Positions 8,161-41,289 of a stretch of 64,000 bases of DNA are shown here, piece after piece. Source of the DNA: Proteromonas lacertae (Eukaryota); contig NGBS01000591.1 in assembly GCA_002245135.1 (NCBI GenBank), positions 62,001-126,000 on the forward strand. The letters run 5' to 3'. Position 1 is the first letter of the stretch. Every line of letters begins with the position of its first letter. The position numbers and the translations under genes were made by a program. The notes below the pieces were generated by a model that had not been told where the DNA came from, did not search any database, and saw only the letters and a list, made by a program, of their open reading frames with translations.

Positions 8161-8403
8161 TAATAATGAATAATAAAGGGAAATGAGTACAGTTTGAAAC
8201 CCCTATTTTTTGGGGTTTTTGTATTCGAAACCCTATATGGTTTTTTTATTCGTTACTTTTTGTTTTCGAAAATATAGTCGTTATGCTTCAAATCTAATTT
8301 GCAAAAAATACTCAATTATGTTATTATGCATTGAAAACATCACCAATCATTTTTTTATTATGCATATACACACCCCCAACACATAGATAATTGATTGAGT
8401 TGA

Positions 8404-8790
8404 TTAGTCAAAAACATTAGATCTAATGATTAGTGATTCTTCTTCAGCTTCTTTAATGACTTCACTCAGTCTATTTCTGTAGAACTCTATTTTCGGTGGA
8501 TTGACTGATGAAGGGAAATTGTAGTATATATTTATACATTGACCTACTACATTTTGATGCTTGAAAATATCATCAACAAGGAATGTATGGAGCTTACTTC
8601 TGACTGCTGCTGTCTGGTCTCCATAAAATTTCATTACATCATGCCATTTGCAACCATTATCTCTAATGAACTCCAATTCTCTCTGAAATGTTAATCTTCC
8701 TTTTCTATTATTGTAAATGGCTGAATGATTGATCGAATGTCTCTTACTTTCTTAATTAGGTCTGGGACAACTATCATCTTAAAATCACTA
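8404..8790 (-). other. 3' fragment of an unknown intronless ORF abutting the virus-like gene
   Basis: 90-aa ORF with coding-like sequence continuing upstream across a frameshift to about 8790. No family recognised. Confidence 0.3.
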
Positions 8791-10269
8791 TAGTTTTTGC
8801 CATTGATGGCATAGCTTTTGATAATTCACTAATACCTTTAACTGCAGCAGCAGTTGTTGCATCACCTCCATTTGCAGCTGCAGCTACAGTTGCTGCTGTT
8901 TTTAATGTATCACCTACATTTTTTGCATCTATATTTCCAATATTAGAAAATTTGTAGAAGAATGGAACTAATTGAAATAAGTATCGAACATATGGATGAG
9001 TATTGAACATAAATGAAACACCAAAGTTATACAACAAGTCTACAGGTAACATTGATTTAACTTTTTCTGAATTACCATAATACAAGTCAGTGATAGCAGG
9101 TAATCTACCACCTGACAGCATACGAATTATTTCATAGTAGTCGAAAATGAAGTACCACATTACATACAAGAACCCTGATGTTGGTAGTTTAGATTTTTTC
9201 CATAACCAATAAGCCAAACATGTCATTACTATTGCACGAACATATATCATTGCATGATCTACTTCAAACATTTGAGGAGTAACTCCACCTACCAAATATG
9301 ACTTCATTGTATAGTATATTTGTGGAAATATCCTAAATACATTCTCTACACACAGGAACAAATTACCAGCAAAACCCATAAAATCAGATTCACGTAATGA
9401 ATCGAGTGCTTTTTGAAATTGTGAATTTTCAAATTGTGCCCATGAACTACAAGCAGTTTTCACTAAACCAATAGCTATTTCATATTTTTGTTTATTATCT
9501 GCATTCACCCACTCTTGAGGAAGTGAGTGACCTAACTTCTCTCTGTTATAATCAAAGTTAATGAAATCTCTACTATTCTGTGATGCTATTTCATTCAGTT
9601 CTCTATATTTATCTTCATTAATCCATGTATGCGGTTCTTTATCTATATCTATAGCACTATTCACCAGTTCTTGATTTTTTGGATCTAATGCCCATCTATA
9701 AAATTTTGATCTTTCTAATATCTCTTGATCATCCATATATCTTTGTGCCTTTTGATTATTCATTGCAATATATTCTTTTACTTTTTCAGCTCGATTCGGA
9801 TCAAAATTATATGGATCTGAATATTGATTGATCTTACTTACTCCATCAACTAATTCATTCTGCAAATACTCCTGCTGTAATAATAGTTTGTTATAATATT
9901 CTATTGCATCTTTATCATTACCTGTTAATTTATCCCAAGTTGAGGTCAACCAATCTTGTCTATAATTTTTATAGGCTGCTAATTGAGGATTCTTTTCTAT
10001 AATCTCTTGTAATGATTTATAATTTTGTAATTTAGGAAATTTTTGTAACAAAGGATATGTAACTCTATTCATTCCATTATCATATGCCTGAACATCTGCT
10101 TCTGTAACATATTCAGGCCAATTCAAAAGATAGCTTCTTGGATTAGATGTATCTAATTCTGCTAATGGATATGTTCCTCTTAAATGTCCTGTTTTATGTT
10201 CACGATCTAGCATATCATAAAAATTAATATGATAATTGTTAGGCAACATTGAAGCATAATTATCTGTAA
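8774..10269 (-). CDS. Virus-like structural/core polyprotein paralog A, 3' part
   Basis: 491-aa intronless ORF sharing identical blocks with the ORFs at 14972-16634 (LLLQQEYLQNEL, ASQNSRDFINFDYNREK, YYEIIRMLSGGRLPAITDLYYGNS). Homology extends upstream to about 10269. Confidence 0.55.
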
Positions 10270-10808
10270 TGTTGGTGGGATGAGAGTAAAGAGAAATTAA
10301 TTCAAAGATTAGGTATTTCTGATGTAGATGAGACTGTGCGCATTACACCTAATATGTTCCTTGAGTGTGTTAACAAGATTAAGGAGAAAAGAAACCCATC
10401 TTTTGAAAAAAACTCATCAATTATTAGAAAGTATTATTATGATGAATCATGAAGCTAATATATTACCTCCTCCTCCTCCTAATGATAATAGTAATAAAGA
10501 AATAGAAGAAATACAAGTCAAGCTTGAAAATGACAATGACAATGTCAATCTCACAGATTATGACTTATCTCCAATATCACCAAGATCCATTAAGGATGAA
10601 TATATTAATAATAACCAATGTCTTGTAAGTTAGTTTATTGATAATAAATACATTACTTTGATTAATTTTGTTTTCTTATATAAGATTCTCATAAACACAC
10701 ATGGACTTTGATGTAATAACTGTTTTGCTTTCAGTTCTCGTATTTGTATTGTATATGATAGCTTTGGCTCTTTTCAAATACTTAAAGGCACACAATTGTA
10801 TTCCAAAC

Positions 10809-11894
10809 CAGGGTTGTATAAATCGGTCATGACCGACGGAGAAAACCGATCGGTCGTAGGTCAATAAATAAATGTTGACCGACACCAGGCTGTAGTAACT
10901 ATTAGCTGACCTCCTCCTAAACATGTGATATTAATAATATTATCTAACTGTACATATTGAATTCAAGCTCTATATATCATTCTATAAAATACCCAATTAA
11001 CCGTCGGTCGATGTGCTTTTTTCTTTCTTCATAATTGAATCTAACCTTACCAATGAGTTATTCTATTGTGTTATATATGTAATATAAAGTATAGAATGAT
11101 TATAAAAATTTGAAAGAAAAAATGGCAAACTTTTAGCTTGACATTAATCATTTCTTAAAATTATCATAAATGTATCTAATATAATCTATCATTATATATT
11201 CTAGGAGTATAGTTTTACCAATTGGAGCGGCTCGTGAAGTTATTGCCTTAAAAGAGGCAAATATGCTTAAACATCTTAATTTTAACTTTTACAAAACCTT
11301 TTGGTATAATATGTTAAAGATAAAAAGCCTTGATAAATGCATTTGCAGTAAAAAGAAAGAGATTAATTATGCCAAATGAAGTACAAGAATATTTTCAATA
11401 TGATATTCATTACAGCACCTCTGAAACCATTGGAAATATCTGGCTATCATTAAAGTCCAAGTTTCCTAGGGTATACATACTTGCCAATAACAGTTTAAAC
11501 AGTCTAGCAACATCTTCAGAGCCAGAAAGAATATTTTCAGAGGCTGGACAAATAAGTAACTTATCCAAATCAAATTTATCATGTGATAGATTACAAATGA
11601 AACTGATGATTAGTAGAAATAAATAAGAACATAATTATATAAAATACCTAATTATTGTTGAGTATTAAATTGTAATTCTTTATAAAAAGTTAAAAATTAT
11701 TTAATTGAATTGAAAATATATGAATCAAGTATTAAAATATATTATAAGATAGTTTTTATGAAGGGAAAATTAGTATATAATGAATTAAAATAGATTTTAT
11801 AATATACGGCTTGTATGGCTTGACCGACCGACGGTCAAGGCAAAACCTATAGGTTTTGACCTATCTCCGTCGGTAACAGATAAATACAACCCTG
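10809..11894 (+). mobile_element. Non-autonomous hAT DNA transposon derivative
   Basis: TIR CAGGGTTGTAT at 10809 and ATACAACCCTG ending at 11894; GACCGAC/CGGTC subterminal repeats at both ends; internal hAT dimerisation-domain remnant. No matching 8-bp TSD. Confidence 0.8.
11330..11626 (+). pseudogene. hAT transposase C-terminal dimerisation domain fragment
   Basis: WLSLKSKFPRVYILANNSLNSLATSSEPERIFSEAGQI matches the W...FP.L...A...L..PATS...ER.FS.AG consensus. Confidence 0.85.
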
Positions 11895-11912
11895 TATAAT
11901 ACCACTATTACA

Positions 11913-12377
11913 ACCTAATTTCTTAGTAGCCAAGAGATGCCTCCGTGGGATACTCTCTAATTTTAGTTTATTTCTTCTGTGATGTTTCTTATGATTGAAA
12001 TGAACATGTTTTCTTCTACCTGAACCTGTCTTTGGATATCCATCTAAAGACATACCAAATAAACCATAATTTACTTTTGGCCATAAATGATATTCACTAC
12101 CCATACCATTAATTAAATTACACACATCTGATCGTGCTTCTGGAACACTACGACCACATTGATATTTGAAATAATGTAAGTAATCTACTAATTGATCTAT
12201 TGTTCCTCCATAGCTGGAATACTTTGATATAATATCTAATGGCAATCCTACATTTTTACATACATTTTCTAAATCTTGTTTTGTATTATTCATAACCATT
12301 TGCTTAACTGATTCATAATCATATTGATTAATCAAAAATGGTTGTATTTTTTCCATAATAGCATCTACATTATATCT

Positions 12378-12414
<37 letters not shown>

Positions 12415-13790
12415 ATTGGTTGTGTGTTATTTTGCAATGTTGGCTGGGCTGCTGCCGCCGGGGCGCAGCAGCACCTGCCATCATTCCGGCGTAGTTTGCA
12501 ACATTTGAACTTTGATTATTATAACCTGCACCAGTTGCAGGTATTGAAGTTGTAACATTAGAACTGGGGGCAGTTGTAGTACTATTAGTTGTATTATTAG
12601 AACTGGCCCCAGTTGTAACATTCGATGCTTGAATATTTGAAGTGGCCGGCGCACTCGTCGAATTTGTTGTTGCAGGAGTAGCACCAAATATACCTCTGAA
12701 CCAATTGTATATATTACTTAGTGATGTAGTAAAGAAACCCATTATACTATCTAACTTAAAATGAATCCATTGTGACATATCCATTGGAGGAACTTGTTTC
12801 CAACGATTATATACCAAACTGACAAAATTAGGAGTTAACATTGACACAAAAGATGCTGCATTAACCCATGCTGGGGATAAACCAAATATCCATTGCATAA
12901 CACCACTATATCCTATTCCTGCATTTACTAAATACTTTAATATTGCACCAACAGTATTATCAGGAAATAGTATTTCAAACACTTGTGAAATAGAACCTAA
13001 TGTCATAGTACATAAGCAGAACTTCACACCAAATTTCAACCAATTGTATGTTGTATTACCTGAGAAATATTTATCAATTTTTGAAATTAATGATTGTTTT
13101 TTTCTTTCTTCCATTGTTGCTATCTTTCTCTGATATTCTTCATTCCTTGCTTTCACTATTTCATTTTCTTGTTGTAATTTATACTCGTGATCTTTTTGTG
13201 TTGTACCAGCATTATTATTCCATCTTGGATTGGATTGATATGAATTTACATTGTACTGTGATCCCCATTGTTGTAATGGTTTTCCTTCAATTTGAGATAA
13301 AAATGGATTTTGCCATTGATATGTTAAATTCTCTGGTTGAGCATAATAATCTGAGTATGGCTTGTTATACTTACCTATGTTCCTATAATATCGTCCAAAC
13401 TGGTCTGTGATGCCTGACATATATAATTTGTATTTCATCTCATCAGTCATAAAATTGTTTTTTGTTGCGTTTATATTTGGATTAACAGGCTTTGATAATT
13501 CCTCTATATCATCATCCTCATCTCCTATAGTATCATAAAATTTATTGAAACTAGATTTAGGATCATAGACGTCTAATCCATATGTACCATTCATTGCCTT
13601 TGTCAACATTGGCTGTTGGGTTAGCCATGTGACTGAGATCTAGTTTTATTTTCTTGTTATCTTTCACTTTGTTATAGATGATCTTTTTCAATTTTCTCTT
13701 AAGTGCATTATGATACACAGAAGGATTCTCAAAATCAATTGCTTCTTCTTTTGGTGATGATTGTTGCTTATGCTTTCGTTTAACAACCAT
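11913..13790 (-). pseudogene. 5' part of virus-like polyprotein paralog A (three overlapping ORFs joined by frameshifts)
   Basis: ORFs 13563-13790, 12365-13609 and 11847-12437 overlap consecutively. The last reads KHVHFNHKKHHRRNKLKLESIPRRHLLATKKLG, homologous to KHVHF..HRKHNRKSKL*LKSIPHRHCLATNVLG upstream of ORF 14972. Also TM segments, a Thr/Ser/Asn-rich linker and poly-Q. Confidence 0.55.
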
Positions 13791-13868
13791 AAAATATATA
13801 AAACAATATAAAAAAAAAGAGAAACAATACTATTAGAAATATAGCCGTTATTGATATTATAGATGATA

Positions 13869-14195
13869 TTAACTCTTCTTTCGTTCTACAGATTGCCATC
13901 CATCATCATCAAAATCAGATTCAAATTCATCATCTTCTTGTTCTTGTTTTTGTTCTTGTTGTTGTTCTTCTTCTTCAAAATCAGATTTGAATTCATCATC
14001 ATCATCATCATCATCATTTTTAGGATTGTTTGCTTCTCTCCAATCCTCTCTTATTTTCTTTTGTTCTTCTGGTGTTATATATTGCATTATCTTATCAAGT
14101 TCATCTTTTGTTAATTCTGAAATATCATGTTTAATATCAGTAAATGGCTGTACTTTAATATCTGTTTCTGCTTTAGGAGTAATCAATTTATTCAA
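13869..14195 (-). CDS. Small acidic protein of the virus-like cassette
   Basis: 108-aa intronless ORF with a D/E/Q-rich tail and a repeated DDEF(K/E)SDF motif. Confidence 0.45.
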   Translation of the reverse strand: MNKLITPKAETDIKVQPFTDIKHDISELTKDELDKIMQYITPEEQKKIREDWREANNPKNDDDDDDDEFKSDFEEEEQQQEQKQEQEDDEFESDFDDDGWQSVERKKS

Positions 14196-14227
14196 CTTCT
14201 ACTATTATATATAAATTAACATGAATT

Positions 14228-14761
14228 TTATACCATTTGTTGCATTTGTGACATCTTGATTTGGTTAATTGGATTACTCATATATTCACCCATCTGCATC
14301 CTAGTCTTTGCACTTGCTTGAGCCATTTCATTGTAATTAGGTCTATTCATATTCACATACATGTTAGGACCAAACAAATGCTGATCATCAATCTCTCTTA
14401 AACTATTAGCAAGTGGTATAGCCATTGCATTACCTTCATGTAATGATGTGGATAACATAGAATCGATTGCATTCTGTCTCTCTAAAAATTTTTGCTCATC
14501 ATTCAATTTACGAATATCACTTTCATTAGGAAGAGTGTCTTTAGAATTCAACTTAGTAATCTCATCTTTTATTTCTTTTAAACGACTGTTTCTCATATCC
14601 ACTAAATCTTTTGCATTCTCTCTATAAAAATTATTATATAAACGCTGATAATATTTGTCATGTCCTTTATACCCTTCACCTCTCCGTATCTTCTTCCTTT
14701 TGCCTTTGCCTCTCATCCGAGCAAACACAGCAAGTAGTATTTTCTTATTCAGTTTTTTCAT
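14228..14761 (-). CDS. Basic-N-terminus protein, putative virion core/DNA-binding protein
   Basis: 177-aa intronless ORF with RMRGKGKRKKIRRGEGYKG (GxG motifs inside a basic tract). Confidence 0.5.
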   Translation of the reverse strand: MKKLNKKILLAVFARMRGKGKRKKIRRGEGYKGHDKYYQRLYNNFYRENAKDLVDMRNSRLKEIKDEITKLNSKDTLPNESDIRKLNDEQKFLERQNAIDSMLSTSLHEGNAMAIPLANSLREIDDQHLFGPNMYVNMNRPNYNEMAQASAKTRMQMGEYMSNPINQIKMSQMQQMV

Positions 14762-14809
14762 AATAACTTAATAGAAAATAAAAAGAAACAATTTAATTAT
14801 CATATATAA

Positions 14810-16759
14810 CTGAATTAGGTAATGATCCAAATAGTGTAATTGATGAACTACCTAAGAAAGGATTCTTTGGTTATGGAAGATAACATAAAAAACATGTTCA
14901 TTTTCAAAAAACATAGAAAACATAATAGGAAGAGTAAATTGTAATTAAAATCAATTCCACATAGGCATTGTTTGGCTACTAACGTTTTAGGAGGTGTTGT
15001 ACAACTAAATATGGGAACAACAGTAAAACTTAATGAACACTTTGTTGTTCCCAATCCAAGACAAAGTGTAGATGAAGGTAAAATACCAATCTATATACCA
15101 ACTCAATTACCAACTAATGTACAACGATATATACCAGAACAGCCTGTTGGATACAATTATAATTGGAATTATAATAAATTGTTTGGACCTGGTTTAAGTA
15201 GACAAGCTAGAAGAGAGATTCAATATCTAATCACAAATAACTATGCTCAACACTTATCTAATAATTGTCACATTGATTTATATGATATGAGAGATCCAGC
15301 ACATAAGAAAGGTAATTTAAGAGGTACTCCAGCATTAGCTCAATTAGATACATCAATGCCAAGAGAATATATTTTAAATTGGCCTAAAGGTGTTACAGAA
15401 CAAGATGATATGGCATATGATAATGGAGTGAATAAAATAACAGATGATTTATATAAAAGATTTCCTCAATTACATGGTTATAAGTCGTTACAGCAAGCAA
15501 TTGAAATGAATCCTGAACTACAAGCATACAAAAACTATAAAAATAATATATTATCTAAAGGATGGGACTATATTATGGGAAATAATAAGGAAATGAATGA
15601 ATATTATAATAAGCTATTACTGCAACAAGAGTACTTGCAAAATGAATTAGCAGATGGTGTTAGTAAAATACATACTTATTCTGATCCATCTAATCTCGAT
15701 GCTGAAAAAGTTAAAGAATATATTGCATTAAATAGTCAAAAAATGGGTAGAGTAATGAATGATGATCAAATAAAAGACCAATCACTCTTTTTTAAATTTG
15801 CTACTGAGAATCCAGACATTATGTCAAAAGTTCCAGATATAGGTCAAGGTGAATGTTCACCAATAAATGAAGATTATTATAGAATGCTTAATGAAGTAGC
15901 TTCACAAAATAGTAGAGATTTCATTAATTTTGATTATAATAGAGAGAAATTTGCTCATGAACTTCCTGAAGATTGGATGGCAGCTTCTAATCCAGAAAAA
16001 GTATCGATAGCATTTGGTTTGCTGAAAACAGCATGTTCATCATGGGCAAAATTTGAAAATTCACAATTTCAGAAGGTATCGGACTCTTTGAAGGAAACTG
16101 ATTAACAGGTTTTGTAAGTAACTTATTGTTGTGTGTAGAAAATTTGTTTAGGATATTTCCTCAGATATATTATACATTCAAAGATTATTTAGTTGGTGGA
16201 GTGACTCTTCAAATGTTTGAAGTAGATCATGTAATGAAATATGTACGTACAATATTACTTTCATGTTTGGCTTTTGGTTATGGAAGAAGGCAAAGTTGCC
16301 AATGACAGCCTTTCTGTATGTAATGTGGTACTTCGTGTATGATTATTACGAAATTATTCGTATGTTGTCAGGTGGTCGTTTACCTGCTATCACTGACTTA
16401 TATTATGGTAATTCAGATAAAGAGAAGGCTATATTACCAAAAGCATTACAAAACTCTTGGTTACCGATAGATTTAATTTATAATTTTGGTGCATCATTTT
16501 TGTTCAATAAACATCCCTATATCAGACATTTGTTTCAAGCAGTGCCATTTTTGTTTAGGTTTACTGGTATGTCACCTCCTAATTTAAGTAATGATAGTTC
16601 AGGATCGATATTGAAAGCTGCTTCAGAAGTGTAGCAACAGTGATAACAGCACTTACTGAAGCCAGAAGGACATAAACATAAGAATAGAATGCAATTTCCA
16701 ACTACGTTCCAAAACAACAACAATCAATTCCAAGTTCATTCACTAATTTTGGTAGAGCA
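14810..16759 (+). pseudogene. Virus-like polyprotein paralog B (frameshifted, 5'-truncated)
   Basis: ORFs 14972-16105 and 16263-16634 plus the intervening frame (TGFVSNLLLCVENLFRIFPQIYYTFKDYLVGGVT) align collinearly with the 491-aa paralog A. There are stops and frameshifts at about 14880-14945, 16105, 16262 and 16630. Confidence 0.6.
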
Positions 16760-17248
16760 ATGAGTAACTTAGATCAATTAAAACAAGTTAATCAAGCTTT
16801 AAATTGGTTTCAAAGAGGTAATGGAAATAATAAAAAAGTAAAGAAATTAATTTCACGTAGGAAGATTTTATATAACAATATCACTTCAGATGCCTTATCG
16901 AACTTTGATATAGAGTTAATTGTGAAAAATGAGTTCAATAATTTTCACGGAAAGTTCATGGGAGTGTTCTGCTGGGACGAGCTTGTACTTCCTACACCCA
17001 AAAAGAAGAATCAATGGGGAATCATAATCAATACACTCACCACACAAGCTAGCCCTGATTCTATAGGTCATTGGGTGGCCTTAGTAGTTGACAATATCAA
17101 GAAGCAATTCCTGTACTATGATTCATTTGGTGAAGATCCTCAACACTTAGAAAAATTCAAAAAAAGTTTGAAAAAATTAAAGAAGTATCATAATGAAAAG
17201 TATGAACTTAAAATCAATGGAGTACAGAACCAAAATTCAAATACTACC
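16760..17248 (+). pseudogene. Adenain/Polinton-virophage-type cysteine protease (clan CE), 5' part, interrupted by the Ginger insertion
   Basis: Motifs FMGVF, IIINT, GHWVALVVD, YYDSFG and VQNQNSNTT. The catalytic Cys lies beyond the insertion. Confidence 0.85.
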
Positions 17249-17351
17249 TGTTGTTCCCCGTTGAGTACAACTCCCCGTTGAGCGATTAGAAACTTTAGAA
17301 ACAAACTAATTATATAATGTTATTACTCATAATGAGTTATGAAGGGATATA
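17249..17351 (+). repeat. Left TIR of the Ginger element
   Basis: TGTTGTTCCCCGTTGAGTACAACTCCCCGTTGAGCGAT... is the reverse complement of 27323-27425 and contains two direct copies of TCCCCGTTGAG. Confidence 0.95.
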
Positions 17352-18383
17352 ATGTTACCTTGTCATATAAGCTACTTTTGTGAGTAAAAAAATAGTGTCA
17401 TAATATTGAGAAAAAACTACATAAATGAGTGTTAGAATTAATTTATATTTCATATTTTATGTTTTTATTTTAATATGATGTCTAAATAAAAAGTGACAAA
17501 ATTTAAGGATTTAAGAATTATACCCCTTCTGACGTCAGTGTTTTCACACAAACTTTCTCAAACTACATTCATTTCATTTTTTTGATTTTAAAACTATTAA
17601 AATAGTTAATATTATTGTAATTTAAATAATTAGCATAAATGGATTTTTATCATACAAAATTTGCTGTTTTTATATCACCAATATAGATATAAACAAAAAA
17701 TGTGTAATTGTGGAAATATATTTATAGAAAAAGTGTCTTTTTATTTACTATAATATATATAATGAGTGTATAATGAGTATAGTTAATATATTGTATCAGA
17801 TCTTAAAATCACTTGCAAATCAGAATACACTCTTTTGTTTTCTTAATACAAATTAAATAATGTTTATTATTTTATATAAAATACAGCTAATTAACCAAAT
17901 CACACTTCTCGCATTACATTCTTATACATTCAACTCTTCTGGACTTATGAAACATATACCATTTATTTTTATATGCTTTTCTTTTCTAAGTGTTTATTAA
18001 TATGTTTTTCATACAACTTAAAAAACTATTGTAAAACAAAGAAAATAACACAAACCTCAAGCCTATGATAATATTTGAATTTTGATATCAAAAATGTAAG
18101 TGTTATATATATATATATTATTATTATTATATTATTATATATTATATATTATTTATCAATTTATTTATATATATATATATTTTGCGTTAAAGGTAGATAT
18201 AGATGAATATAGTCATTGGTAAGAAGAATGAATATTATGTATAGTTAGTAAAATATTTTTCTCAATTTGGTAGTCAATCATTATATTCATTTATCGATAA
18301 TTATGATAAAGAAATTTTTAATGCTCATTTGGAAACTGTTTTGGAATTGTATGTATATATTTTGTTATAATTGTTGTTTATAG

Positions 18384-19500
18384 ATAAAAGGTGATAATGC
18401 GAATAGAATGAAGATGAACATAAAGTTGAATCCTCTAATACTAAAGAAGATGAGATAAGTCAATTGAAAGAAGAGTTGAATGAAATGAAGAAAGAAAAGA
18501 ACGAATTAGAAAGTCAATTGAAAGAGATGAAAGAAGAATCTAAACCATATACTGATGAAATTGAATCATCAAATAGTTAAAAAAAGAATAAAGAATAAAT
18601 AGAGAAAGAGTTGAATGAATTGAAAAATAAAATCAAAGATAATAATAAGATAGAAAATGATGTAATTTACAAAAGTGAAAAACTTGGAATAAGTGAAATA
18701 GAAGAAATAGAAAATGAATTGAAAGAAGAATGAGATAAATCTAATCAATAGAATGTAGAATTACAGAAGAACAAAGATGAATTAGAGAAAGAAATAACTC
18801 AATTAAAAGAACATCAATCTAAATCTCAGAATGAATTAGAGAATGAATTAAATGGATTGAAAGAACAACTAGATAAATCCAAAGAAGAGAAAGAAGAAAT
18901 GAAAAAGAACAAAAAAGATTTAGAGAATGAGTTGAAGAAAATGAATGATGAAGTAATAAAATGTTAAACCATTTTAAGATAATTCAAGTATTTATTTTAT
19001 TCCCATAATCAGTACTTCAGTTTAGTTATATCAACATGATGACATGATAATGAAGAAATGATTGAATAAGTGGGTAATGATCCTGAAGTGTTAGCTTTTA
19101 TTGGAACTTCTACTAATGAAGAAAGATAAGCAATTCATCCATATTTGTCAGAATATAATAAATAATTATTCTCATTTTATGTTGTAGAAGTTTAAAAAAG
19201 TTTACAAGAATGTAATACAGTTTGGAAGAATGCCTCATCATTATATGATTAAAGTATTTAATTATCACTATATTAATAGAAGATTATAATATAACATTGA
19301 ATAATGAGAATGGTATAATAAGTGGATTTCCAACTAATGAATTGAATAATATGTTGAGAATAAAAATAACAGGTAATAATGATAAAGAAGGAATAGAAAT
19401 AGAAAATTCAGTTATTAAACACATTCAGTTGCAAACCTATCTCACATATTATGAAACAAAATATATATTTTGTAAGTGAAGAAGATAAGAAAAAATATAG
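18384..19500 (+). pseudogene. Degenerate host-like gene fragment (K/E-rich coiled coil + Ig-like remnant) carried inside the Ginger element
   Basis: Long E/K-rich coding-like tract with several in-frame stops. LNNENGIISGFPT resembles the IDKESGIIHGKVN Ig-like motif in the host gene at 3478-4536. Confidence 0.5.
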
Positions 19501-19786
19501 AATAGAATAATATGAAGGCAAATGAAATTGACAGATAAAACAAAAGGAGTGTTTGTAAGAATAAATGTGAATAAGTGTATTTAGATAATGTATTACTTTA
19601 GGTGATTTTACATTAGTTGGTATGAATTTATTGTTTTTTGAGGTTTTATTTCAGCAATACATAATTAGAATTCAATGATTTATATAAAAAATAACAGTAA
19701 AAACATTAGCTATATATATTTATTACTATAACTATATATATACATATAATTCTCATTTATTTCATAATATATATCATAATATATAG

Positions 19787-22700
19787 GTTTTCTGAAGTAT
19801 TACACCTTGATCAAGTACTTGAGGACGATCACAAACCTCTTTATTATCAAGCACTTGATAAGTTGTTTAAAGAAAAAGCCTCTTCCAGCGGCGATAAAAA
19901 GAGAAAAGAACACAGAAGAAGTCATTCTGTAGGTATCGAAAAGAGAAAGAAAGGAAACAAAAGAAGCCGTTCTACTAGTAGTAATGAAGTAGAAGAAGAT
20001 AATTATCGTTGTAGAAGCTTTACCAAAAAGAAATACGATGATTATGTAAAAGATATAAACTTCTATTCCAACAAAGGTTATTCTTACGATGAAGAGACAA
20101 AGCAGTTATTGTTTAAAGGAAAGAAGGTTATTAAAATTGAAGAATCGTTTGATGTACTAAAAGAATTACACGAAGGTAATGGTCACATTACAATTGAACC
20201 TTTGTATTACTTGGTAAATGAAAAGAAGTACTATGGTATTACCAGAGAAATGGTAGATGTATTCGTAAAAACATGTTCTGGATGTAAAGAATTGAAGAAA
20301 GTTCATGTTGAACAACCGTTAAAACCGATACTATCAAGCTATCCACGCGAAAGAGTGTTATGCGATCTAATTAATATGAGTAAAATCAATGAGAAATTTA
20401 CAGTTACTGAAGAAGAACAGTTTAATTACATTCTTACAGTGATTGATCATTACAGTAATTTTACAATTATATATCCATTAAAGAGAAAAACAAAAGAAGA
20501 AACAGTGAAGAATATGCGAAATTATATCAGAATTTTTGGTGCTCCTCAGATTCTTCAAATGGATAATGGTACTGAATTCAAGAATGATTTGATGAGAAGT
20601 TTATGCAATGAATATGGAATTGAAGAAGTTCATAGTGCACCATATAGGCCTCAAACGAATGGAAAGGTAGAAAGGTACAATCGAGTTGTGAAAAACACTT
20701 TAAAAGGATTTATGATGTCGAATAAAGGCATTTATTGGACTGAATTTGTTGATAAAATTATTGAAACAATAAACAATCACAAGTGCAGAAGAACACATTC
20801 TAAGCCTAGATCTTTATTCTATATGGATATTGAACAATTAAAGAAGGAAAACCCAAAGTTATTTATAAAAGAAAATGGCGAAGAAGATGGTGATAATGGT
20901 GGTAATAATGGTACAGTTGATGGTGATGATGATGGTAATGTTTGTCATGATGAATTATGTGATTGTTCTAAAGAAGATGATAAAGAATATTTTAATGATG
21001 ATGAATACGATGAAGTTGAAGTAATAGAAATAGCAAAAGAAAAATATGATGAGAAGAAAAACATAGAAAACATCAGAAAAGATATTTTGAAAAATGAACA
21101 TAAACTCCAACAAGTAAAAGATTACATTAATAAAAGAAGAGATGAATACAATGATAAAATGCATGATGAATCAGAAAAAAAGCTGAAGAAAACTATTATC
21201 AATCCTAAACATGGTGATATAATTGTCTATACCGACAAGAAGAAGAATTACGCAGATAACAACAAGAAAGGAATAATTAAAGAAGATAAAAAAACTAAAG
21301 ATTTATATGGATTGTATACTATTAATATTTAAATTAATATAATTATATAGGATTGATGACCAAGCAATTAAACTTACTACATCTTCAGCATTTACAATAA
21401 TACCTGTTACAAAAGAAGTAAATGAAAAAATGAAAAGAAAAGCTGATGAATTATATGTATTATAAAGTTTATTATTATTATATAATAGATGAATCCTCAA
21501 TCAAAGAAAAGACTATTAGATCCTGATTATAAGAAACAATTACATGAAATAGTTCATAGGCCAAAGTTAAATGCAGTCTATGGAACTATAGCTATAGGAG
21601 CAATTGATATTAAATTAGATTCATCATCACCATTAGAAGAAAGTCGATTAGAATATGTTAAATCTGTTAGAAATAAAATTGGAACAATGCAGTTGGATAT
21701 TATAGATGTAAGATTTATATTGGATTTATATACTTATGGAAGTCAATTTGATCTATTATTAGAGAATGATGAATGTTTAGGTACTTATATAACAACTAAA
21801 AATAGGGATATTTATATAATTAAGTCGGATAGTAGGTATTATACAACGTATCAGACATTAGTAAAAGGTATAAAGTATATTCATGTCATTGACTCATCTA
21901 ATAAAGGTAATTATAAAACAGATTTAGAGAAACTCAGAATTAAAGTTGGTAAAGATAAAGATCAATTCAGATTATTAGTTGATAAGGTGGAAACAAATCA
22001 TCCAGAAGCTACAGATATAGTTTCATTGGTAGTATTTATGATGAAATGTAAGGGTGCAAATATTATTAGTGTTGACACAAGGTTATTAGGAGATTTGTTT
22101 AAAGAATATATAGATACATTAATCAATACCAATTCATGTTTATTGAACTTGGCATTTTTTAAATCATATTGTTCAAAAATATCAACATCATCAATTACTT
22201 ATGAAGAAGAACAAGAAAGCCATGGTTTAAGCTTTGTAAAAAAGATAAGAAAAGTATTTCAGTATGATGATAAGATTGTTTGTTACAAAGGTAAAGAAAG
22301 GGCTGGAAACATCAGTAAATGTGAAAAATTAATATGTGATATGAATACTAATTATGAGTTAAATACAGACGAGTTCACACTTCTACTACATTTCATCAAC
22401 AATGACAATAGTGATGTTATAGATCCATTGGTACTATATCAGAGTGAAGCTCCCAATCACCCCATTCATCATAGTGGTACTTATTTCATTCCAGTATGCA
22501 GAGAACATCATTGGACAGTATGGGAGGTGGAATATGTAAAGAATGAATCAATTACATGTTATATCCATGATTCAATGAAAGAATATACTCATGACTCTCA
22601 AGATAGAAGGTATTTATACTCTGATATTACATCATTATTTGACACAGAAAACATCGATATCTCTTATAAATGCAGTAAAATAATACCATTAGATTATGAG

Positions 22701-22934
22701 TTAAAGAACTTAAAACAAAAAGGTGATAAGAGCTGCGGTTATTTTGCATTGTTCTTTTTAGGTATAAGAAAGATGAATATGGAAATTGAAGATGTGGAAC
22801 ATATAGAATCTTTCAATATATCGTACTTTATAATGGATTTAAAAAGGGTTTTAGCATCATTGGATAATAATGATAAAGCAAAGTTATATTGGTATAAAAA
22901 GCATAAACCATCATTCTATAAATTCAAATGCTAA
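19787..22934 (+). CDS. Ginger transposase: HHCC zinc finger + rve DDE integrase fused by splicing to an unknown domain and a Ulp1/C48-like protease
   Basis: LHEGNGH...CSGC; catalytic LCD, QMDNGTEF and NGKVERYN. GT-AG introns at 21314-21350 and 21457-21488 join ORF 19863 in frame to ORF 21489, which has HHWTVW, YIHDSM and KQKGDKSCGYFAL. The first exon was not located; an acceptor AG lies at 19785-19786. Confidence 0.88.
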
Positions 22935-23044
22935 CATCTATATTAATTAATTATAATAATGTTTTATTGTAACTTGTTTGTTTTACAAATTTAACTTTTA
23001 AATAACAAATAATTAAAAGTATATAAATTCATATTCACTATTCC

Positions 23045-26000
23045 TATTAAGATTAAAATATGTGTATGTAATACACATACTATAATACATCTATCTATAT
23101 ATTAATATCAAAAATTACTCAAAATTTGACTGAATCTAGTTTCAGATTCAGTCAAATTTTAAGTAATTTTTGATATTAATATATATTTATATACAATTAA
23201 TAGTATCTAACATATACAGAGAGTATCAAGTTAATACTGTGTGTCTGTACTCAACAGGGAGAAAAGAGTAAATTTCATCCCATTGAGTACAGACAAACAG
23301 TATTAAGCTTATAGTATGTGTATGTAATACACATACTATAATACATCTATCTATATATTAATATCAAAAATTACTCAAAATTTGACTGAATCTAGTTTCA
23401 GATTCAGTCAAATTTTAAGTAATTTTTGATATTAATATATATTTATATACAATTAATAGTATCTAACATATACAGAGAGTATCAAGTTAATACTGTGTGT
23501 CTGTACTCAACAGGGAGAAAAGAGTAAATTTCATCCCATTGAGTACAGACAAACAGTATTAAGCTTATAATATGTGTATGTAATACACATACTATAATAC
23601 ATCTATCTATATATTAATATCAAAAATTACTCAAAATTTGACTGAATCTAGTTTCAGATTCAGTCAAATTTTAAGTAATTTTTGATATTAATATATATTT
23701 ATATACAATTAATAGTATCTAACATATACAGAGAGTATCAAGTTAATACTGTGTGTCTGTACTCAACAGGGAGAAAAGAGTAAATTTCATCCCATTGAGT
23801 ACAGACAAACAGTATTAAGCTTATAATATGTGTATGTAATACACATACTATAATACATCTATCTATATATTAATATCAAAAATTACTCAAAATTTGACTG
23901 AATCTAGTTTCAGATTCAGTCAAATTTTAAGTAATTTTTGATATTAATATATATTTATATACAATTAATAGTATCTAACATATACAGAGAGTATCAAGTT
24001 AATACTGTGTGTCTGTACTCAACAGGGAGAAAAGAGTAAATTTCATCCCATTGAGTACAGACAAACAGTATTAAGCTTATAATATGTGTATGTAATACAC
24101 ATACTATAATACATCTATCTATATATTAATATCAAAAATTACTCAAAATTTGACTGAATCTAGTTTCAGATTCAGTCAAATTTTAAGTAATTTTTGATAT
24201 TAATATATATTTATATACAATTAATAGTATCTAACATATACAGAGAGTATCAAGTTAATACTGTGTGTCTGTACTCAACAGGGAGAAAAGAGTAAATTTC
24301 ATCCCATTGAGTACAGACAAACAGTATTAAGCTTATAGTATGTGTATGTAATACACATACTATAATACATCTATCTATATATTAATATCAAAAATTACTC
24401 AAAATTTGACTGAATCTAGTTTCAGATTCAGTCAAATTTTAAGTAATTTTTGATATTAATATATATTTATATACAATTAATAGTATCTAACATATACAGA
24501 GAGTATCAAGTTAATACTGTGTGTCTGTACTCAACAGGGAGAAAAGAGTAAATTTCATCCCATTGAGTACAGACAAACAGTATTAAGCTTATAATATGTG
24601 TATGTAATACACATACTATAATACATCTATCTATATATTAATATCAAAAATTACTCAAAATTTGACTGAATCTAGTTTCAGATTCAGTCAAATTTTAAGT
24701 AATTTTTGATATTAATATATATTTATATACAATTAATAGTATCTAACATATACAGAGAGTATCAAGTTAATACTGTGTGTCTGTACTCAACAGGGAGAAA
24801 AGAGTAAATTTCATCCCATTGAGTACAGACAAACAGTATTAAGCTTATAGTATGTGTATGTAATACACATACTATAATACATCTATCTATATATTAATAT
24901 CAAAAATTACTCAAAATTTGACTGAATCTAGTTTCAGATTCAGTCAAATTTTAAGTAATTTTTGATATTAATATATATTTATATACAATTAATAGTATCT
25001 AACATATACAGAGAGTATCAAGTTAATACTGTGTGTCTGTACTCAACAGGGAGAAAAGAGTAAATTTCATCCCATTGAGTACAGACAAACAGTATTAAGC
25101 TTATAATATGTGTATGTAATACACATACTATAATACATCTATCTATATATTAATATCAAAAATTACTCAAAATTTGACTGAATCTAGTTTCAGATTCAGT
25201 CAAATTTTAAGTAATTTTTGATATTAATATATATTTATATACAATTAATAGTATCTAACATATACAGAGAGTATCAAGTTAATACTGTGTGTCTGTACTC
25301 AACAGGGAGAAAAGAGTAAATTTCATCCCATTGAGTACAGACAAACAGTATTAAGCTTATAGTATGTGTATGTAATACACATACTATAATACATCTATCT
25401 ATATATTAATATCAAAAATTACTCAAAATTTGACTGAATCTAGTTTCAGATTCAGTCAAATTTTAAGTAATTTTTGATATTAATATATATTTATATACAA
25501 TTAATAGTATCTAACATATACAGAGAGTATCAAGTTAATACTGTGTGTCTGTACTCAACAGGGAGAAAAGAGTAAATTTCATCCCATTGAGTACAGACAA
25601 ACAGTATTAAGCTTATAATATGTGTATGTAATACACATACTATAATACATCTATCTATATATTAATATCAAAAATTACTCAAAATTTGACTGAATCTAGT
25701 TTCAGATTCAGTCAAATTTTAAGTAATTTTTGATATTAATATATATTTATATACAATTAATAGTATCTAACATATACAGAGAGTATCAAGTTAATACTGT
25801 GTGTCTGTACTCAACAGGGAGAAAAGAGTAAATTTCATCCCATTGAGTACAGACAAACAGTATTAAGCTTATAATATGTGTATGTAATACACATACTATA
25901 ATACATCTATCTATATATTAATATCAAAAATTACTCAAAATTTGACTGAATCTAGTTTCAGATTCAGTCAAATTTTAAGTAATTTTTGATATTAATATAT

Positions 26001-27042
26001 ATTTATATACAATTAATAGTATCTAACATATACAGAGAGTATCAAGTTAATACTGTGTGTCTGTACTCAACAGGGAGAAAAGAGTAAATTTCATCCCATT
26101 GAGTACAGACAAACAGTATTAAGCTTATAATATGTGTATGTAATACACATACTATAATACATCTATCTATATATTAATATCAAAAATTACTCAAAATTTG
26201 ACTGAATCTAGTTTCAGATTCAGTCAAATTTTAAGTAATTTTTGATATTAATATATATTTATATACAATTAATAGTATCTAACATATACAGAGAGTATCA
26301 AGTTAATACTGTGTGTCTGTACTCAACAGGGAGAAAAGAGTAAATTTCATCCCATTGAGTACAGACAAACAGTATTAAGCTTATAGTATGTGTATGTAAT
26401 ACACATACTATAATACATCTATCTATATATTAATATCAAAAATTACTCAAAATTTGACTGAATCTAGTTTCAGATTCAGTCAAATTTTAAGTAATTTTTG
26501 ATATTAATATATATTTATATACAATTAATAGTATCTAACATATACAGAGAGTATCAAGTTAATACTGTGTGTCTGTACTCAACAGGGAGAAAAGAGTAAA
26601 TTTCATCCCATTGAGTACAGACAAACAGTATTAAGCTTATAATATGTGTATGTAATACACATACTATAATACATCTATCTATATATTAATATCAAAAATT
26701 ACTCAAAATTTGACTGAATCTAGTTTCAGATTCAGTCAAATTTTAAGTAATTTTTGATATTAATATATATTTATATACAATTAATAGTATCTAACATATA
26801 CAGAGAGTATCAAGTTAATACTGTGTGTCTGTACTCAACAGGGAGAAAAGAGTAAATTTCATCCCATTGAGTACAGACAAACAGTATTAAGCTTATAGTA
26901 TGTGTATGTAATACACATACTATAATACATCTATCTATATATTAATATCAAAAATTACTCAAAATTTGACTGAATCTAGTTTCAGATTCAGTCAAATTTT
27001 AAGTAATTTTTGATATTAATATATATTTATATACAATTAATA
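23045..27042. repeat. Tandem array of ~15.6 copies of a 256-bp multi-hairpin unit
   Basis: ATTAATATCAAAAATTACTC recurs at 23101, 23357, ..., 24381 and 26941 (period 256). Units appear identical except at one A/G site. Confidence 0.97.
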
Positions 27043-27322
27043 ATTAAGTTTAATATTTTTAATTACGAAAAAATTTAAAAAGATGTACAAAAATATAAAC
27101 AATTACATATGAAATTAACGATAAAAAAATAATTAAGGGGGTAAAAAAATTCAGGATTTACAACACATTTTTTTGTTTATCTCATCATCCAATTGAAAAT
27201 TTTTGAAAATAATTTATATTATTAATAAGCATAATATGTACATATATAATATGAAATAAAAGTGAACTAGTTGGTGTAATAGATGATATCGCGACATGTT
27301 GTATATGTTATATGACCACCTA

Positions 27323-27425
27323 TATATCCCTTCATAACTCATTATGTGTAATAACATTAAGTAGTTAGTTTGTTTCTAAAGTCTCTTATCGCTCAACGGG
27401 GAGTTGTACTCAACGGGGAACAACA
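27323..27425 (-). repeat. Right TIR of the Ginger element
   Basis: Ends ...GCTCAACGGGGAGTTGTACTCAACGGGGAACAACA and is followed by the TSD CTACC. Confidence 0.95.
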
Positions 27426-27430
27426 CTACC

Positions 27431-27568
27431 AACTGCGGTTTTTTTGCTATTAATTTTTTGAAAAATATTTTAAGAGATCAGTGTAATTTCAAAAAGGCTA
27501 CTGACTATAATACAATAGTGGGTGAAGCAAAAATTAGGTTAATGAAAAAACAATTTGGATTAATATAA
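27431..27568 (+). pseudogene. Adenain-type protease, 3' part carrying the catalytic Cys
   Basis: Removing the element and one TSD restores the frame ...QNSNTT-NCGFFAINFLKNILRDQCNFKKATDYNTIVGEAKIRLMKKQFGLI*. Confidence 0.88.
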
Positions 27569-28497
27569 AAAGAAATATTCGTTTTATTTTTTGGTGTTAT
27601 TCTATTGATTTATCATTTTTTCTAATTCTGGGTCTTTGTAATATTTTTCTGAACCAAGTATCTCGTGCTTCATCTTTTTTCGCTAGCTGCAGCTTATAGT
27701 GCTTAAAATGAATAAGTGAAAAATCTGGTATCTCTCTGCCATCTTGATCTCCAAAACAATACGAATATCATTTTACGTCTTCGCTCCTTAAATCTCACCA
27801 AGTCACCAACTTCGAAATTTTGGTCATTTTTTTCAAGTTTTTCAAAATTTTTCAAATTATAGTTTATTGACTTCATTATTTAAAAAAATAAACCTTCATC
27901 CAAACAAAAACATCTCATTATTAACCAGTTTAGTATTGCGTATTTTCTGTAACCTAACTGCATACTAAAATCAAATAATCTAAATCAAATATACCAGTTT
28001 GAATGATTGATTTAGATAATATACCTTGTAAAATGCGAGAAAATTCTATCATATCAAAGTAATAATGAAACATTGCTAGTATTGCTAATAACTTCTTCTT
28101 TTCTGCATTCTATAATATAATTGTTGATGTTGGTAATATATAGACTACTTCAAAGCATGATTCACTGAAATATTAATCATGGGATCTACCTTGTAACATT
28201 TGACCATAAAAATTATTAATAGAGGTAATTGTACAAAAATAACAACCATAAACAATAATTCATTTTTCACAGTATTATAATTTGTTACATAAACCACTAC
28301 TATACATTTCCAACACACATTCTACTCTTTATTACTTAGATTAATATTTATTTATCCAATGTTCATTTAAATGAACTATATGCTCAGATAAAAATATGTA
28401 TATATGAATTAAACTAAATTTAATTAATAAATAGTAAGAAATTTAAATAAAAATGCAAAAAAGAAAAAACAACTAAATGTTTGAATAACAAGCTCGT

Positions 28498-28787
28498 AAG
28501 GGGGTAAAAATATTCAGGAATAGAATTTTATTTTTGTTAATATCTTCATAATATAATAGAATTGGTATAAAATATTTTATATATGAAATGAGTATAATTC
28601 ATACATACATTTTATATAGTAAAATTTAATATGATAGTCTATTTGTTGATATTAACATGTCTAGTATACATTATAAAACTAAACATATATTTGAACATAA
28701 CTCATCTTCAACATCATAAATATGATATTAGTTTTGAAAAAGTCTTCTTAACGCCCAACGGCGCATTTAGCTCAACGGCGCACAACA
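28498..28787 (+). mobile_element. Orphan right end of a second, diverged Ginger-family element
   Basis: GCCCAACGGCGCATTTAGCTCAACGGCGCACAACA mirrors the first element's right terminus. AAGGGGGTAAAAA.ATTCAGGA lies 289 bp inside this end versus 290 bp in the first element. Confidence 0.7.
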
Positions 28788-29114
28788 AAATAGTTTTAAT
28801 ATTTGTGGCATTTGTATTCTAGAAATTTTTGAAGCAAACTAAATGCATATTTAGCTAATATAGACTAAAATACATTAGCTGAAATGATTAGAACAACTTA
28901 ATGTTGATCATAAGACATTTAAAATGAAAAAAGAAAATATAGAATCAAGCCTCACTCAAGCCTATATTCTACATTTTTTTTATATAGAAAGATTTAATAA
29001 TTATTATATTCTAATCATTTCAGCTAATGTATTTTAGTCTATATTAGCTAAATATGCATTTAGTTTGCCGCAAAAATTTCTAGAAAACAAACGGCGCAAA
29101 TATTTAAACTATTT
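28788..29114. mobile_element. MITE-like/foldback element with ~106-bp inverted arms
   Basis: 28788-28893 is the reverse complement of 29009-29114 with about 7 mismatches, around a ~115-bp non-coding spacer. Confidence 0.7.
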
Positions 29115-29367: not shown

Positions 29368-29458
29368 ATCTAATTTTTGATATTCTCTAGAGTATTACAT
29401 TATTATCATTATTATAGAATAAATACATTATATTTTAACCTCCTAATAGTATTACCTC
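29368..29458 (+). repeat. ~90-bp direct copy of an internal TBCE segment (7723-7813)
   Basis: ATCTAATTTTTGATATTCTCTAGAGTATTACATTATTATCATTATTATAGAATAAATA is shared exactly, followed by near-identity. Confidence 0.8.
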
Positions 29459-34315: not shown

Positions 34316-37300
34316 TTACTTCCAACTAATTTTATCATTAGGTTGAATTGGTTTGTCATAAATATTTTTATATTCACTAAACCCTCCATCTAATATCATT
34401 TTCATTGTTGATGTGTTACGATTCAGAATCTCAATGAAAGATGGCATTTCCTTCTTAATATCATGTCTTAATAAATCATCTTTACTACAATACTTTACAT
34501 ATTCACTATAAGTACCTAAATATTTTATTTGTAAGTCTTTAATAATATTCAATTCCTTTAAATATAAATCACATCCACTTGGAACAATATATTCATCATT
34601 TAATCCTTGTATAAAATGGAATAATTCTTTTTGATCTAAACCCCATTTCTTATCATAAATAAGTGACTTTGGTATATTGAATTCTTCATAATTAATATGA
34701 ATATGATTAACCTTATCAATTGAAGAGAGATAGTCTTTAAATGTCTGTTTAATTTGATTTAGTGTTTCATCATCTATTCTATCATTTATTTTATCATTGT
34801 TATTGTGATAATTATTATTGCTATTATTGTGTAACTGAGCTGGTGGTATATTTGATAATTCATTTTTTTCTTTCATTTCTGAATCAGATAATATTTCATC
34901 ATCCTCTGAACTATTGTTATTCACATTCTTTGGTAAATATTTAGTATCTGATTGATGTTCATGCATATTCAATGATTTATTACTCATATTATTATCTGCT
35001 TCTACTTCTTTATTTTCTGTTTGTTTTTCTTCTTTATCTTTTATTTGGTTTTTATTCTCCATCACTTCAATCGATTTCTTATGAATATCAGATATAAAGT
35101 GAGGATGTTGTTTTACTACTTTACCATCATTATCTTTCACTAGTTTATATTCTAATGGAGGAATCATTTGTAAATTATTCACTTTATACAACTCTCTATT
35201 CTCTTTACTACCATATACACTGCCATAATGAGTAATATATCTCAAATGTCGATTATGCCAAAGTTGACATTTCTCATTCATATATATCTTCTCTAATTCA
35301 TCTAATATTGATATGTGTTTAGGTATTTGTAATGATTGTCTCTTTAACTCCAACTCTAAATCATATTTTGTAGCATTCTCTTGTAGTTTATTGTCATGTC
35401 CTGGTAAGAACCTATTGCCAATCATTTTCAATATCTTTTCATCTATTGGATAAGTTGAAATACTAACTGCACTAGTATGAGGATGATATTCACCACTTAA
35501 CATAAAACCAGGATGTGGACCAGGCCAATTGGTCATTTTTGTCCTTACAGAACCCATAAAACCAGGTATATCTTCATATTCTTCTTTATAATGAGGATTA
35601 ATGATCATTTGTTGAATTAATGCTTGTTTTCTTAATTTAGACATTCTTTTCATTATATATTCTAATTCTGACTGTGTGAATTTACTTAAATCAACTCCAT
35701 AACTATCATATAAATGGAATAATATCATATCACCCACACTTTCTTCATCTGTTTGTTGTAAATCTATTTCATCCATATCCTTTAATTCTTTCTTCTGTTT
35801 CTCTTTTTCTTCTTTTAATTCTTTCTTCATTAATCTTATATTGAAATTACTCCAGTTTTCATATGGCATTCCATCATTATCTGTTGGTTGGTAGAAGTCT
35901 TCTATTTCTGATTCACTGTACATGAATTGTTCAGGTAATGGATCTCCTTTCTTCCATGTCTTTCTTATTTCTCTTAATGATGGTATGTTTCCTTTTGAAG
36001 TATTATTATTATTATTGGATTTTCCGCTATCTTTCTTATTGACATTATTCTTTCCACCTTTTCCAGTAGATTGTTGTTGTTGTTGTTGTTGTTGTTGAGA
36101 TTCTTTTCCACCTTTATTCTTCTTATCTTTTTTACTTTTCTTATTCTCAGTTTGTAGAGCTACTTTATCATCTTTCTTTTTCTCTTCATTTGGTTTACCT
36201 GTTACTTCAGCTGCTGGTGTTTCATCTTCAGTTTTCTTTACTTTCTTTGTATTAACAATATTCTTATCATGTCTTTCATGTGTTTTATTATAATCTTTCT
36301 CTTGTTTTATTGATAATATAGTTGGTTCTAAATCAACAACAGGTTTTTGAGGTTTATCATAATCCATTTGTTTATTTATCTTCTTCATTTCTTTACCATA
36401 TTCTCTCAACATCTTTATATCACCATCTGCTTCTTGTATTTCATCAATTAATTGTTGGTTGAAATTATTGTTCAATATTAACTTACCTTTACTAAATAAC
36501 ATTTGATCTAATAATTGATCTGCATTTTTATTCTTAATATCATCTATTTTGAAGGTTTCTGGATGGTTTTGGTATTTTTCTATCTCTTTCCAAACTGGAT
36601 TATTCTCTAATTCATTCTCATTAACATCATTACCATATAACTGTTTAGATAAATCTTTATTGGATTTATCAATAGCACCTAATTTCACTTCATTGTTACC
36701 ATTCATACCATTACTTAAATTATATTGTTGTTTGTGTTTGTTGATTATATCAATAGCATTCTTTGGATTAAATACCAACTTAGATGATAATCTCAATACT
36801 TCATTTTCTGCTAATATTTTTGGTATTCCTTTATCTCTACTATTTCTCTGGATTAAATCTTCTTCTTTATCATCTAATAACTTGTTCTTCAATTGTACTC
36901 TTCCACTATTTCCTTTTGCTTCTCCTCCTTCCACTCCTCCTTCTTCACCAAATATTTCAGCCTTTAACATTGATGATTCTAATCCTAATTCACTATTAGA
37001 TATCATTTCTTTCTCTGAATAAGGTGATAAACTTTCTTTTATATCTAGATCAGATGTTTCTACTTCAATCATACTACTTTCTTCATCTTCTTTATTGTTG
37101 TTATATTCATCATCATAATCATCTTTATACTTATTATTGAACTTTTTCTTATTATCATATTCATCAGAATCATCATGGACCATTCTCAATCATCTCTTTT
37201 ATTTCTTTTTTCACTTCTTTTTCCACTCTTTTTTCTACATTATGTAATATTTTACTCTGTAATACTTCAATTCCTGGGTTACTCTCTTTATCAGCTTTAA

Positions 37301-41188: not shown

Positions 41189-41289
41189 TTAAGCCAAAAA
41201 CTATTTTTTAGGGGATTTTTTTCGTTCCCTGAATGATTTAGTTTTTGAAAATTTCCCAGTCCTTATAGAACAATAAGAAAAACTTAGCA

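Follow-up and report, generated by a model that had tools for sequence, protein, structure and literature searches.

Ginger transposons are defined by TGTNR ends, terminal inverted repeats (TIRs) of 40–270 bp and a Gypsy-type integrase (PMC2836005). Ginger1 elements, as described there, carry a C-terminal Ulp1 or OTU domain and are flanked by a 4-bp CCGG/CCGT duplication, and the TDD-4 and TDD-5 elements have a 5-bp duplication (PMC2836005). Transposons are also known to enter endogenous viruses: nested elements disrupting the genes of endogenous polinton-like viruses (PLVs) have already been published (PMC12220804, for cryptophyte PLVs; PMC10120064), and 91% of type 1 Ngaros were placed in EMALEs, the endogenous virophages of Cafeteria, with a bias towards intergenic positions (PMC8547959). 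Gossevirus-group PLVs and Maverick-Polintons count a cysteine protease among their core genes (PMC7805220; bioRxiv 10.64898/2026.06.19.733378). Here we describe a 64,000-nucleotide stretch of the Proteromonas lacertae genome (contig NGBS01000591.1, positions 62,001 to 126,000; hereafter the window), in which a 10,177-bp element has inserted into a protease gene. The reading we prefer, with a probability of roughly 0.7, is that a Ginger-type transposon landed by chance in the protease gene of a likely Polinton/Gossevirus-type remnant and was tolerated by the host.

Insertion Site and Boundaries of the Element

The features that define the insertion are as follows.

16688..17248, plus strand: 5' part of the interrupted clan CE protease domain (start codon ATG at 16760; similarity to the relative P0002 from 16688)
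17244..17248, plus strand: left target-site duplication, CTACC
17249..17370, plus strand: left TIR, starting TGTTG
27308..27425, minus strand: right TIR, ending CAACA
27426..27430, plus strand: right target-site duplication, CTACC
27431..27568, plus strand: 3' part of the interrupted protease, with the codon of the catalytic Cys at 27434

The element occupies positions 17249–27425 between the two CTACC copies, and its inverted repeats are identical over 38 nt and 89% identical over 122 nt, with termini reading TGTTG...CAACA. The terminal 17-mer, with up to three mismatches allowed, occurs three times in the window, where 0.03 occurrences are expected; the third belongs to a separate, older end and not to this element. 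To the left, the protease frame runs from the ATG at 16760 to 17248 (163 codons) and holds the catalytic His (17069), Asp (17120) and Gln (17231). The 45 codons to the right open with Asn and Cys (27434) and continue for 43 more before a stop at 27566, such that the rejoined pieces make 208 codons and a single codon separates the junction from the catalytic Cys. When the left piece alone served as query, one protein was found among 38 candidates, P0001 (193 aa), a natural uninterrupted homologue in which residues 8–148 match the left piece (62%) and residues 149–193 the right piece (67%), colinearly and with neither gap nor overlap at the junction. The insertion of the element into the protease gene is real. 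An earlier note on this DNA had reported a 10,177-bp element flanked by CTACC, lying between the Gln and the Cys of an H-D-Q-C set and one codon ahead of the Cys, and had asked for uninterrupted copies of the protease; the coordinates, inverted ends, codon positions and end-to-end alignment of P0001 with both pieces all bear this out. Because the frames of the element are intact, the duplication is exact and the tandem array inside it is uniform, the sequence suggests that the insertion is recent.

Contents of the Element and Its Relation to Ginger

Six features were recognised within the element.

17861..17993, minus strand: decayed host-type kinase gene fragment, 75% identical to 57992–58124
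18152..19200, plus strand: decayed coiled-coil-like reading frame, with 20 stops in 349 codons
19786..21313, plus strand: transposase exon with H2C2 finger and DDE core, from a putative start
21351..21456, plus strand: predicted linker exon, between 37-nt and 32-nt GT-AG introns
21489..22934, plus strand: last exon, with a Ulp1-type (Peptidase_C48) domain at about 22473–22830
23045..27042, no strand: 256-bp units in tandem (one variable position among the 15 complete units compared)

The frame at 19710–21332 encodes an H2C2 finger and an rve core (Pfam: rve 1.5e-14, Integrase_H2C2 3e-4) with catalytic residues D219, D285 and E321, numbered from 19710, and with 35 residues separating the second Asp from the Glu. 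The Ulp1-type domain lies at the C-terminal end of the 21489–22934 frame and scores 24.2 bits for Peptidase_C48 against a Pfam cut-off of 20.7, in agreement with the earlier statement that the transposon itself encodes a clan CE protease. Among the GT-AG pairs tried, three combinations were predicted to link the transposase and protease frames in frame; all three use a 37-nt intron at 21314–21350, and the simplest also takes a 32-nt intron at 21457–21488. The Ulp1-type protease is likely spliced onto the transposase. No reverse transcriptase was seen among the element's five frames of at least 80 aa, the two long ones of which were scanned by Pfam. The repeated 256-bp unit of the array, in part a palindrome, contains a TIR-like GTACTCAAC / TTGAGTAC pair, a head-to-head arrangement of the TIR core motif; these motifs could be extra putative transposase-binding sites.

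On these sequence features we assign the element to the Ginger-type DDE transposons, its TGTTG termini agreeing with TGTNR, its 122-nt TIRs (89%) lying within the described range and its integrase being of the Gypsy type, with H2C2 finger and DDE core and without a visible reverse transcriptase. With the Ginger1 elements that bear a C-terminal Ulp1 domain (Hydra Ginger1-4 to -10; PMC2836005) it shares the TGTNR ends, TIR length, H2C2 and DDE regions, introns and the Ulp1 domain itself, here above the Pfam cut-off and joined in frame through two predicted short introns. It differs from them in its 5-bp CTACC duplication, where Ginger1 has a 4-bp CCGG/CCGT duplication, in having no exact match to the YPYY and GPY/F motifs in the transposase frame when inspected by eye, in its length of 10.2 kb including a 4-kb array and captured fragments, and in its likely protist host, Ginger1 having been reported from four animals (PMC2836005). 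The 5-bp duplication falls within the 4–5 bp of the Ginger2/Tdd group, and it is like that of TDD-4 and TDD-5 of Dictyostelium, with which the element also has in common the TGTNR ends, a protist host and, as judged by eye, an apparent lack of YPYY and GPY/F; however, no protease domain is listed for Ginger2 in the relevant parts of that source, and the element described here is more than twice as long (PMC2836005). GingerRoot is likewise an integrase-type DNA transposon with host gene fragments, but has a 6-bp duplication and plant and animal hosts (PMC6839031). The element appears to combine Ginger1 and Ginger2 features, and the presence of a protease on the transposon is expected, because a C-terminal Ulp1 domain has already been described for Ginger1.

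A Protease of Probable Viral Origin

In an alignment of 68 sequences of the split protease's family, H89, Q143 and C150 are invariant and D106 nearly so. When solved structures were searched with a profile of 19 family sequences, partly made from presumed viral sequences, S273R of African swine fever virus (6e-14) and adenain (1e-8) scored better than SENP1 (1e-5). In an AlphaFold model of P0001 (68 sequences, pLDDT 86), adenain took ranks 1 to 3 of the fold search, with cellular Den1 at rank 4 by a thin margin (E 7.6e-6 vs 4.4e-6). The domain, its fold taken from this natural homologue, therefore has the adenain-like fold and the His-Asp-Gln-Cys order of clan CE maturation proteases. In the Atlas, the top cluster for P0001 is a viral C5 cluster, and 17 of 30 hits fall within that set. 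Because profile, fold and Atlas all rank viral maturation proteases first, the split protease is very probably of viral origin, as the earlier note had proposed, and most likely of the Polinton/Gossevirus kind. It is like the proteases of Gossevirus-group PLVs, Maverick-Polintons and virophages (PMC7805220; bioRxiv 10.64898/2026.06.19.733378) in its H-D-Q-C clan CE domain and adenain-like fold, but membership of those groups is defined by a capsid gene, none of which was recognised in the window, and here the domain usually ends a long protein.

This last feature bears on how much of the gene the window shows. Of the 150 top-scoring relatives in a set of 1.84 billion representatives, 127 have at least 100 residues ahead of the protease domain and 133 end within 25 residues after it. 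The similarity to P0002 extends upstream of the ATG at 16760 to the stop-bounded start of the frame at 16688. The removal of the element does restore the 208-codon frame that the earlier note had described but, because relatives carry long N-terminal parts and the P0002 similarity begins upstream of the ATG, this frame probably represents just the end of a longer precursor and not the whole gene. The start of P0002 also resembles the tail of a paralogue in the window (47-column match, score 60, z 5.7, above all 100 shuffles). Just ahead of the domain, Gly-x-Gly or Gly-Gly occurs in 34 of 141 relatives, compared with 155 of 2,480 control windows. Adenain-type cleavage specificity is the basis on which self-cleavage of the precursor at this glycine motif may be presumed. 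Two basic frames (11847–12356 and 14228–14761, minus strand) have Gly-x-Gly followed by Arg/Lys runs, like the pre-domain motifs of P0122 and P0123, and are possible protease substrates. Homology between the unassigned reading frames of the window and the N-terminal parts of P0122, P0123 and P0125 was supported by neither tblastn nor phmmer.

The two proteases of the locus appear to be related at clan level only. The family of the split protease and the element protease have a common motif of only 14 columns (hhalign probability 40), and the element protease forms a branch of length 7.3 in a 39-row protease tree; on these grounds we reject the idea that the transposon acquired its protease from the virus.

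The Surrounding Block

The protease gene lies in a block of unannotated reading frames, listed here with the other transposon traces.

8200..17248, no strand: intron-poor, GC-richer block of unannotated ORFs, a likely viral remnant
10809..11894, plus strand: hAT transposon remnant (dimerisation domain 11324–11626, 11-bp TIR, without an intact duplication)
28394..28787, no strand: second, diverged Ginger-like right end, without a matching left end in the window

One intron-like segment was counted over the 9.0 kb of the block, compared with six over 8.2 kb of one flank and 29 over 34.3 kb of the other; the GC content is 30.7% in the block and 23.4% and 27.2% in the flanks. The flanks carry dense host genes with introns of about 30–40 nt, a pattern that points to a single-celled eukaryote as host, and long frames cover 62% and 83% of them. 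Within the block, an inverted pair of paralogues (8774–10270, minus strand, and 15011–16634, plus strand) is 72% identical in DNA and has hydrophobic C-terminal parts. Pfam found no convincing family in the block frames at 8200–17248 except the hAT domain, whose remnant truncates the end of the reading frame at 11847–12356. The second Ginger-like end matches the first over 414 columns at 67% (score 303; the highest score in 200 shuffles was 178.5). The three transposon proteins had no further match in the window, in a search narrower than a full transposon search. Immediately after the second end lies a 327-bp imperfect palindrome (28788–29114, 80%) that is MITE-like. A 91-bp piece of a CAP-Gly/LRR host gene, at 7723–7813 to the left of the block, recurs at 29368–29458 to the right, at 93% identity and in the same orientation.

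Chance, Preference, and the Nature of the Block

Under the preferred reading, a Ginger-type cut-and-paste transposon would have cut its target with a 5-bp stagger, as known DDE chemistry suggests, and would most likely have landed in this DNA by chance and persisted there because the host has no need of it. The domain that was hit would have stood at the C-terminus of a long precursor protein of the virus, which processed virion proteins at Gly-x-Gly-like sites, and the element protease would be an accessory domain of the Ginger1 type that probably acts on SUMO/ubiquitin-like tags and has no special link to the gene hit. The protease frame makes up 627 of the roughly 8,926 bp of the block (7%), and the closeness of the insertion to the Cys was singled out only after the fact, as nearly any other site within the domain would have been just as disabling. 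With the hAT remnant and the second Ginger-like end, three traces of transposons lie within or next to a single dispensable block, which is consistent with a transposon sink and with what selection would leave behind in a gene-dense genome.

That about 1.4 kb of target DNA holds two Ginger-like ends might instead indicate that the family prefers endogenous virus DNA, as Ngaro1 does, riding along or hiding in it with the loss of the protease as a side effect. We consider this unlikely. The sequence does not demonstrate that the insertion was directed at the virus, nor does it bear out the hitch-hiking or antiviral relationship that the earlier note had raised as a possibility. Both Ginger-like ends in the window do fall within the block or at its border, while the roughly 42 kb of flank contain none, and Ngaro1 provides a precedent (PMC8547959); however, the case consists of one window and two events from different subfamilies (67% alike), and selection in a gene-dense host predicts an identical picture. 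A rider that destroyed the maturation protease would harm its vehicle, whereas Ngaros favour intergenic virus DNA (PMC8547959), and the integrase had no relative in IMG/VR, a weak point since the search reaches close relatives only. The locus resembles the Ngaros in Cafeteria EMALEs (PMC8547959) and the nested retroelements in cryptophyte PLVs (PMC12220804) in that a host transposon lies in an endogenous small DNA virus, sometimes within a gene, but those are retroelements whose preference has been measured, whereas here there is one window only. A bolder version, in which a protist Ginger lineage with a Ginger2-type 5-bp duplication and a Ginger1-type Ulp1 domain is a DNA transposon drawn to endogenous Polinton-type viruses, the cut-and-paste counterpart of Ngaro1, that hit the block twice and disabled a self-processing precursor-protease, we hold to be improbable.

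It is likewise doubtful that the block is something other than a Polinton-type virus (another mobile element, a giant virus piece or a host-kept gene family) and that its protease is Ulp1-like, although several observations weigh on that side. Pfam scores the left piece higher in C48 (1.2e-5) than in C5 (0.02), and P0001 is likewise best in C48. The Peptidase_C5 scores of the left piece (15 bits) and P0001 (17.1) fall below the cut-off of 21.3, and P0002 passes it (31.2 bits) yet scores higher in C48. The best match to SENP/Ulp proteases that the earlier note had named as counting against a viral origin is thus formally present in Pfam, but not in the profile or the fold search, where the composition of the profile and the closeness of Den1 should be kept in mind. 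No capsid, ATPase or other morphogenesis gene, polymerase or viral integrase was recognised by Pfam in the 28 and 15 window frames scanned, a weak test in that the block may be partial and that Pfam also missed the capsid-like frame of a relative described below. No viral terminal repeats were found flanking the block, which at about 9 kb without its inserts is smaller than the 14–40 kb of PLVs and Gosseviruses with their long TIRs, and their major and minor capsid proteins and packaging ATPase were not found in the window by Pfam. Among 6,526 candidates there was no homologue of the 491-aa paralogue, and comparison of the paralogues with the N-terminal parts of the long relatives gave nothing convincing (a single weak hit, to P0232, at E 0.001).

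The genomic context of relatives adds to both sides. The closest clade of the split protease comprises 11 rows (support 100/97 in the 39-row tree), and the closest relatives (P0001–P0006, P0122, P0123 and P0125) are without recorded genomic context. The comparison drew on three relatives with DNA. In the first (L001), two frames come after a 35%-identical protease, and the latter of them has capsid-like neighbours in the Atlas (0.97; Capsid_N set in 13 of 30 hits). This capsid call is weak (recognition 1821, below 2300; Capsid_N on 15% of members), the frame has no Pfam or PDB match, and the protease falls outside the clade of the window protease. In the second (L002), an IMG/VR contig, a fibre-like S74 gene adjoins the protease, and the first frame has no PDB or Pfam match for capsid identity. 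The last of the three (L003) is a tailed-phage contig and weighs against a virus of the Polinton type. There, the family protease at 9752–10462 is fused to a Lin1244_N-like start, and the contig is possibly a chimeric assembly. IMG/VR scans gave no match in six of eight cases and one locus each in two, and an exact look-up of six window proteins gave none. We nevertheless favour a virus of the Polinton type over these alternatives, on the ranking of viral maturation proteases by profile, fold and Atlas, the E-value of 0.54 for SENP1 against the left piece and the poverty of the block in introns.

Frame Breaks and the Loss of the Protease

The block frames are broken near 12460, 13565, 16105, 16265 and 16630–16690. 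Host genes break in the same manner: a frame change of one base, with no intron there, interrupts a DHHC domain between profile positions 37 and 38, and the genes at 34316–41109 (minus strand), 41269–43199 (plus strand) and 60949–61567 (minus strand) show frame changes in both directions, again without introns. The assembly carries uncorrected one-base errors, and decay of the block before the insertion was dropped as an explanation, since host genes are broken likewise. Euplotes-like +1 frameshifting at stops was also rejected, as the long continuations (60-codon threshold) past 189 stops ending frames of at least 60 codons are balanced, with 19 in +1 and 15 in the alternative frame, and as the DHHC domain breaks before its stop is reached. 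An in-frame TAA at 8047–8049 (minus strand) splits a CAP-Gly domain between profile positions 32 and 36, at a site where we presume a conserved Trp, and is an error or a sign of a pseudogene. That the insertion is itself an assembly artefact, or is present on one haplotype with the virus copy otherwise intact, is very improbable: frame errors such as the DHHC split and the observation that stops in endogenous viruses are often artefacts (PMC10120064) speak for it, but a mis-join would not yield an exact 5-bp duplication, both inverted ends and a colinear homologue, and the haplotype version would leave the identity of the element unchanged.

The insertion would disable the protease domain, because the helix after the Cys is lost. 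The first six bases of the element (17249–17254) read Cys-Cys in the protease frame and place a Cys seven residues past the Gln, which is the catalytic spacing; the truncated left product ends eight codons after that Cys, without the following helix, and the spacing is likely a coincidence. The description of the event as a clean knockout, made in the earlier note, is not borne out, in that the domain is likely a precursor tail, the upstream frames are broken and assembly error is indistinguishable from decay.

Significance

The locus holds a new Ginger-type element in a likely viral protease gene, and the event is an ordinary one, transposons nested in protist endogenous viruses being already known. 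The literature searched on preference for viral DNA describes retroelements only and no DNA transposon, and the portions of it that treat Ginger together with endogenous viruses and Polintons contain nothing on such a preference. The window provides a clear, datable example of host transposons breaking up a small DNA virus integrated in a protist genome, together with a protist Ginger that combines features of Ginger1 and Ginger2. If the family does prefer viral DNA, the finding would be relevant to the loss or retention of virophage-like defences by their hosts.

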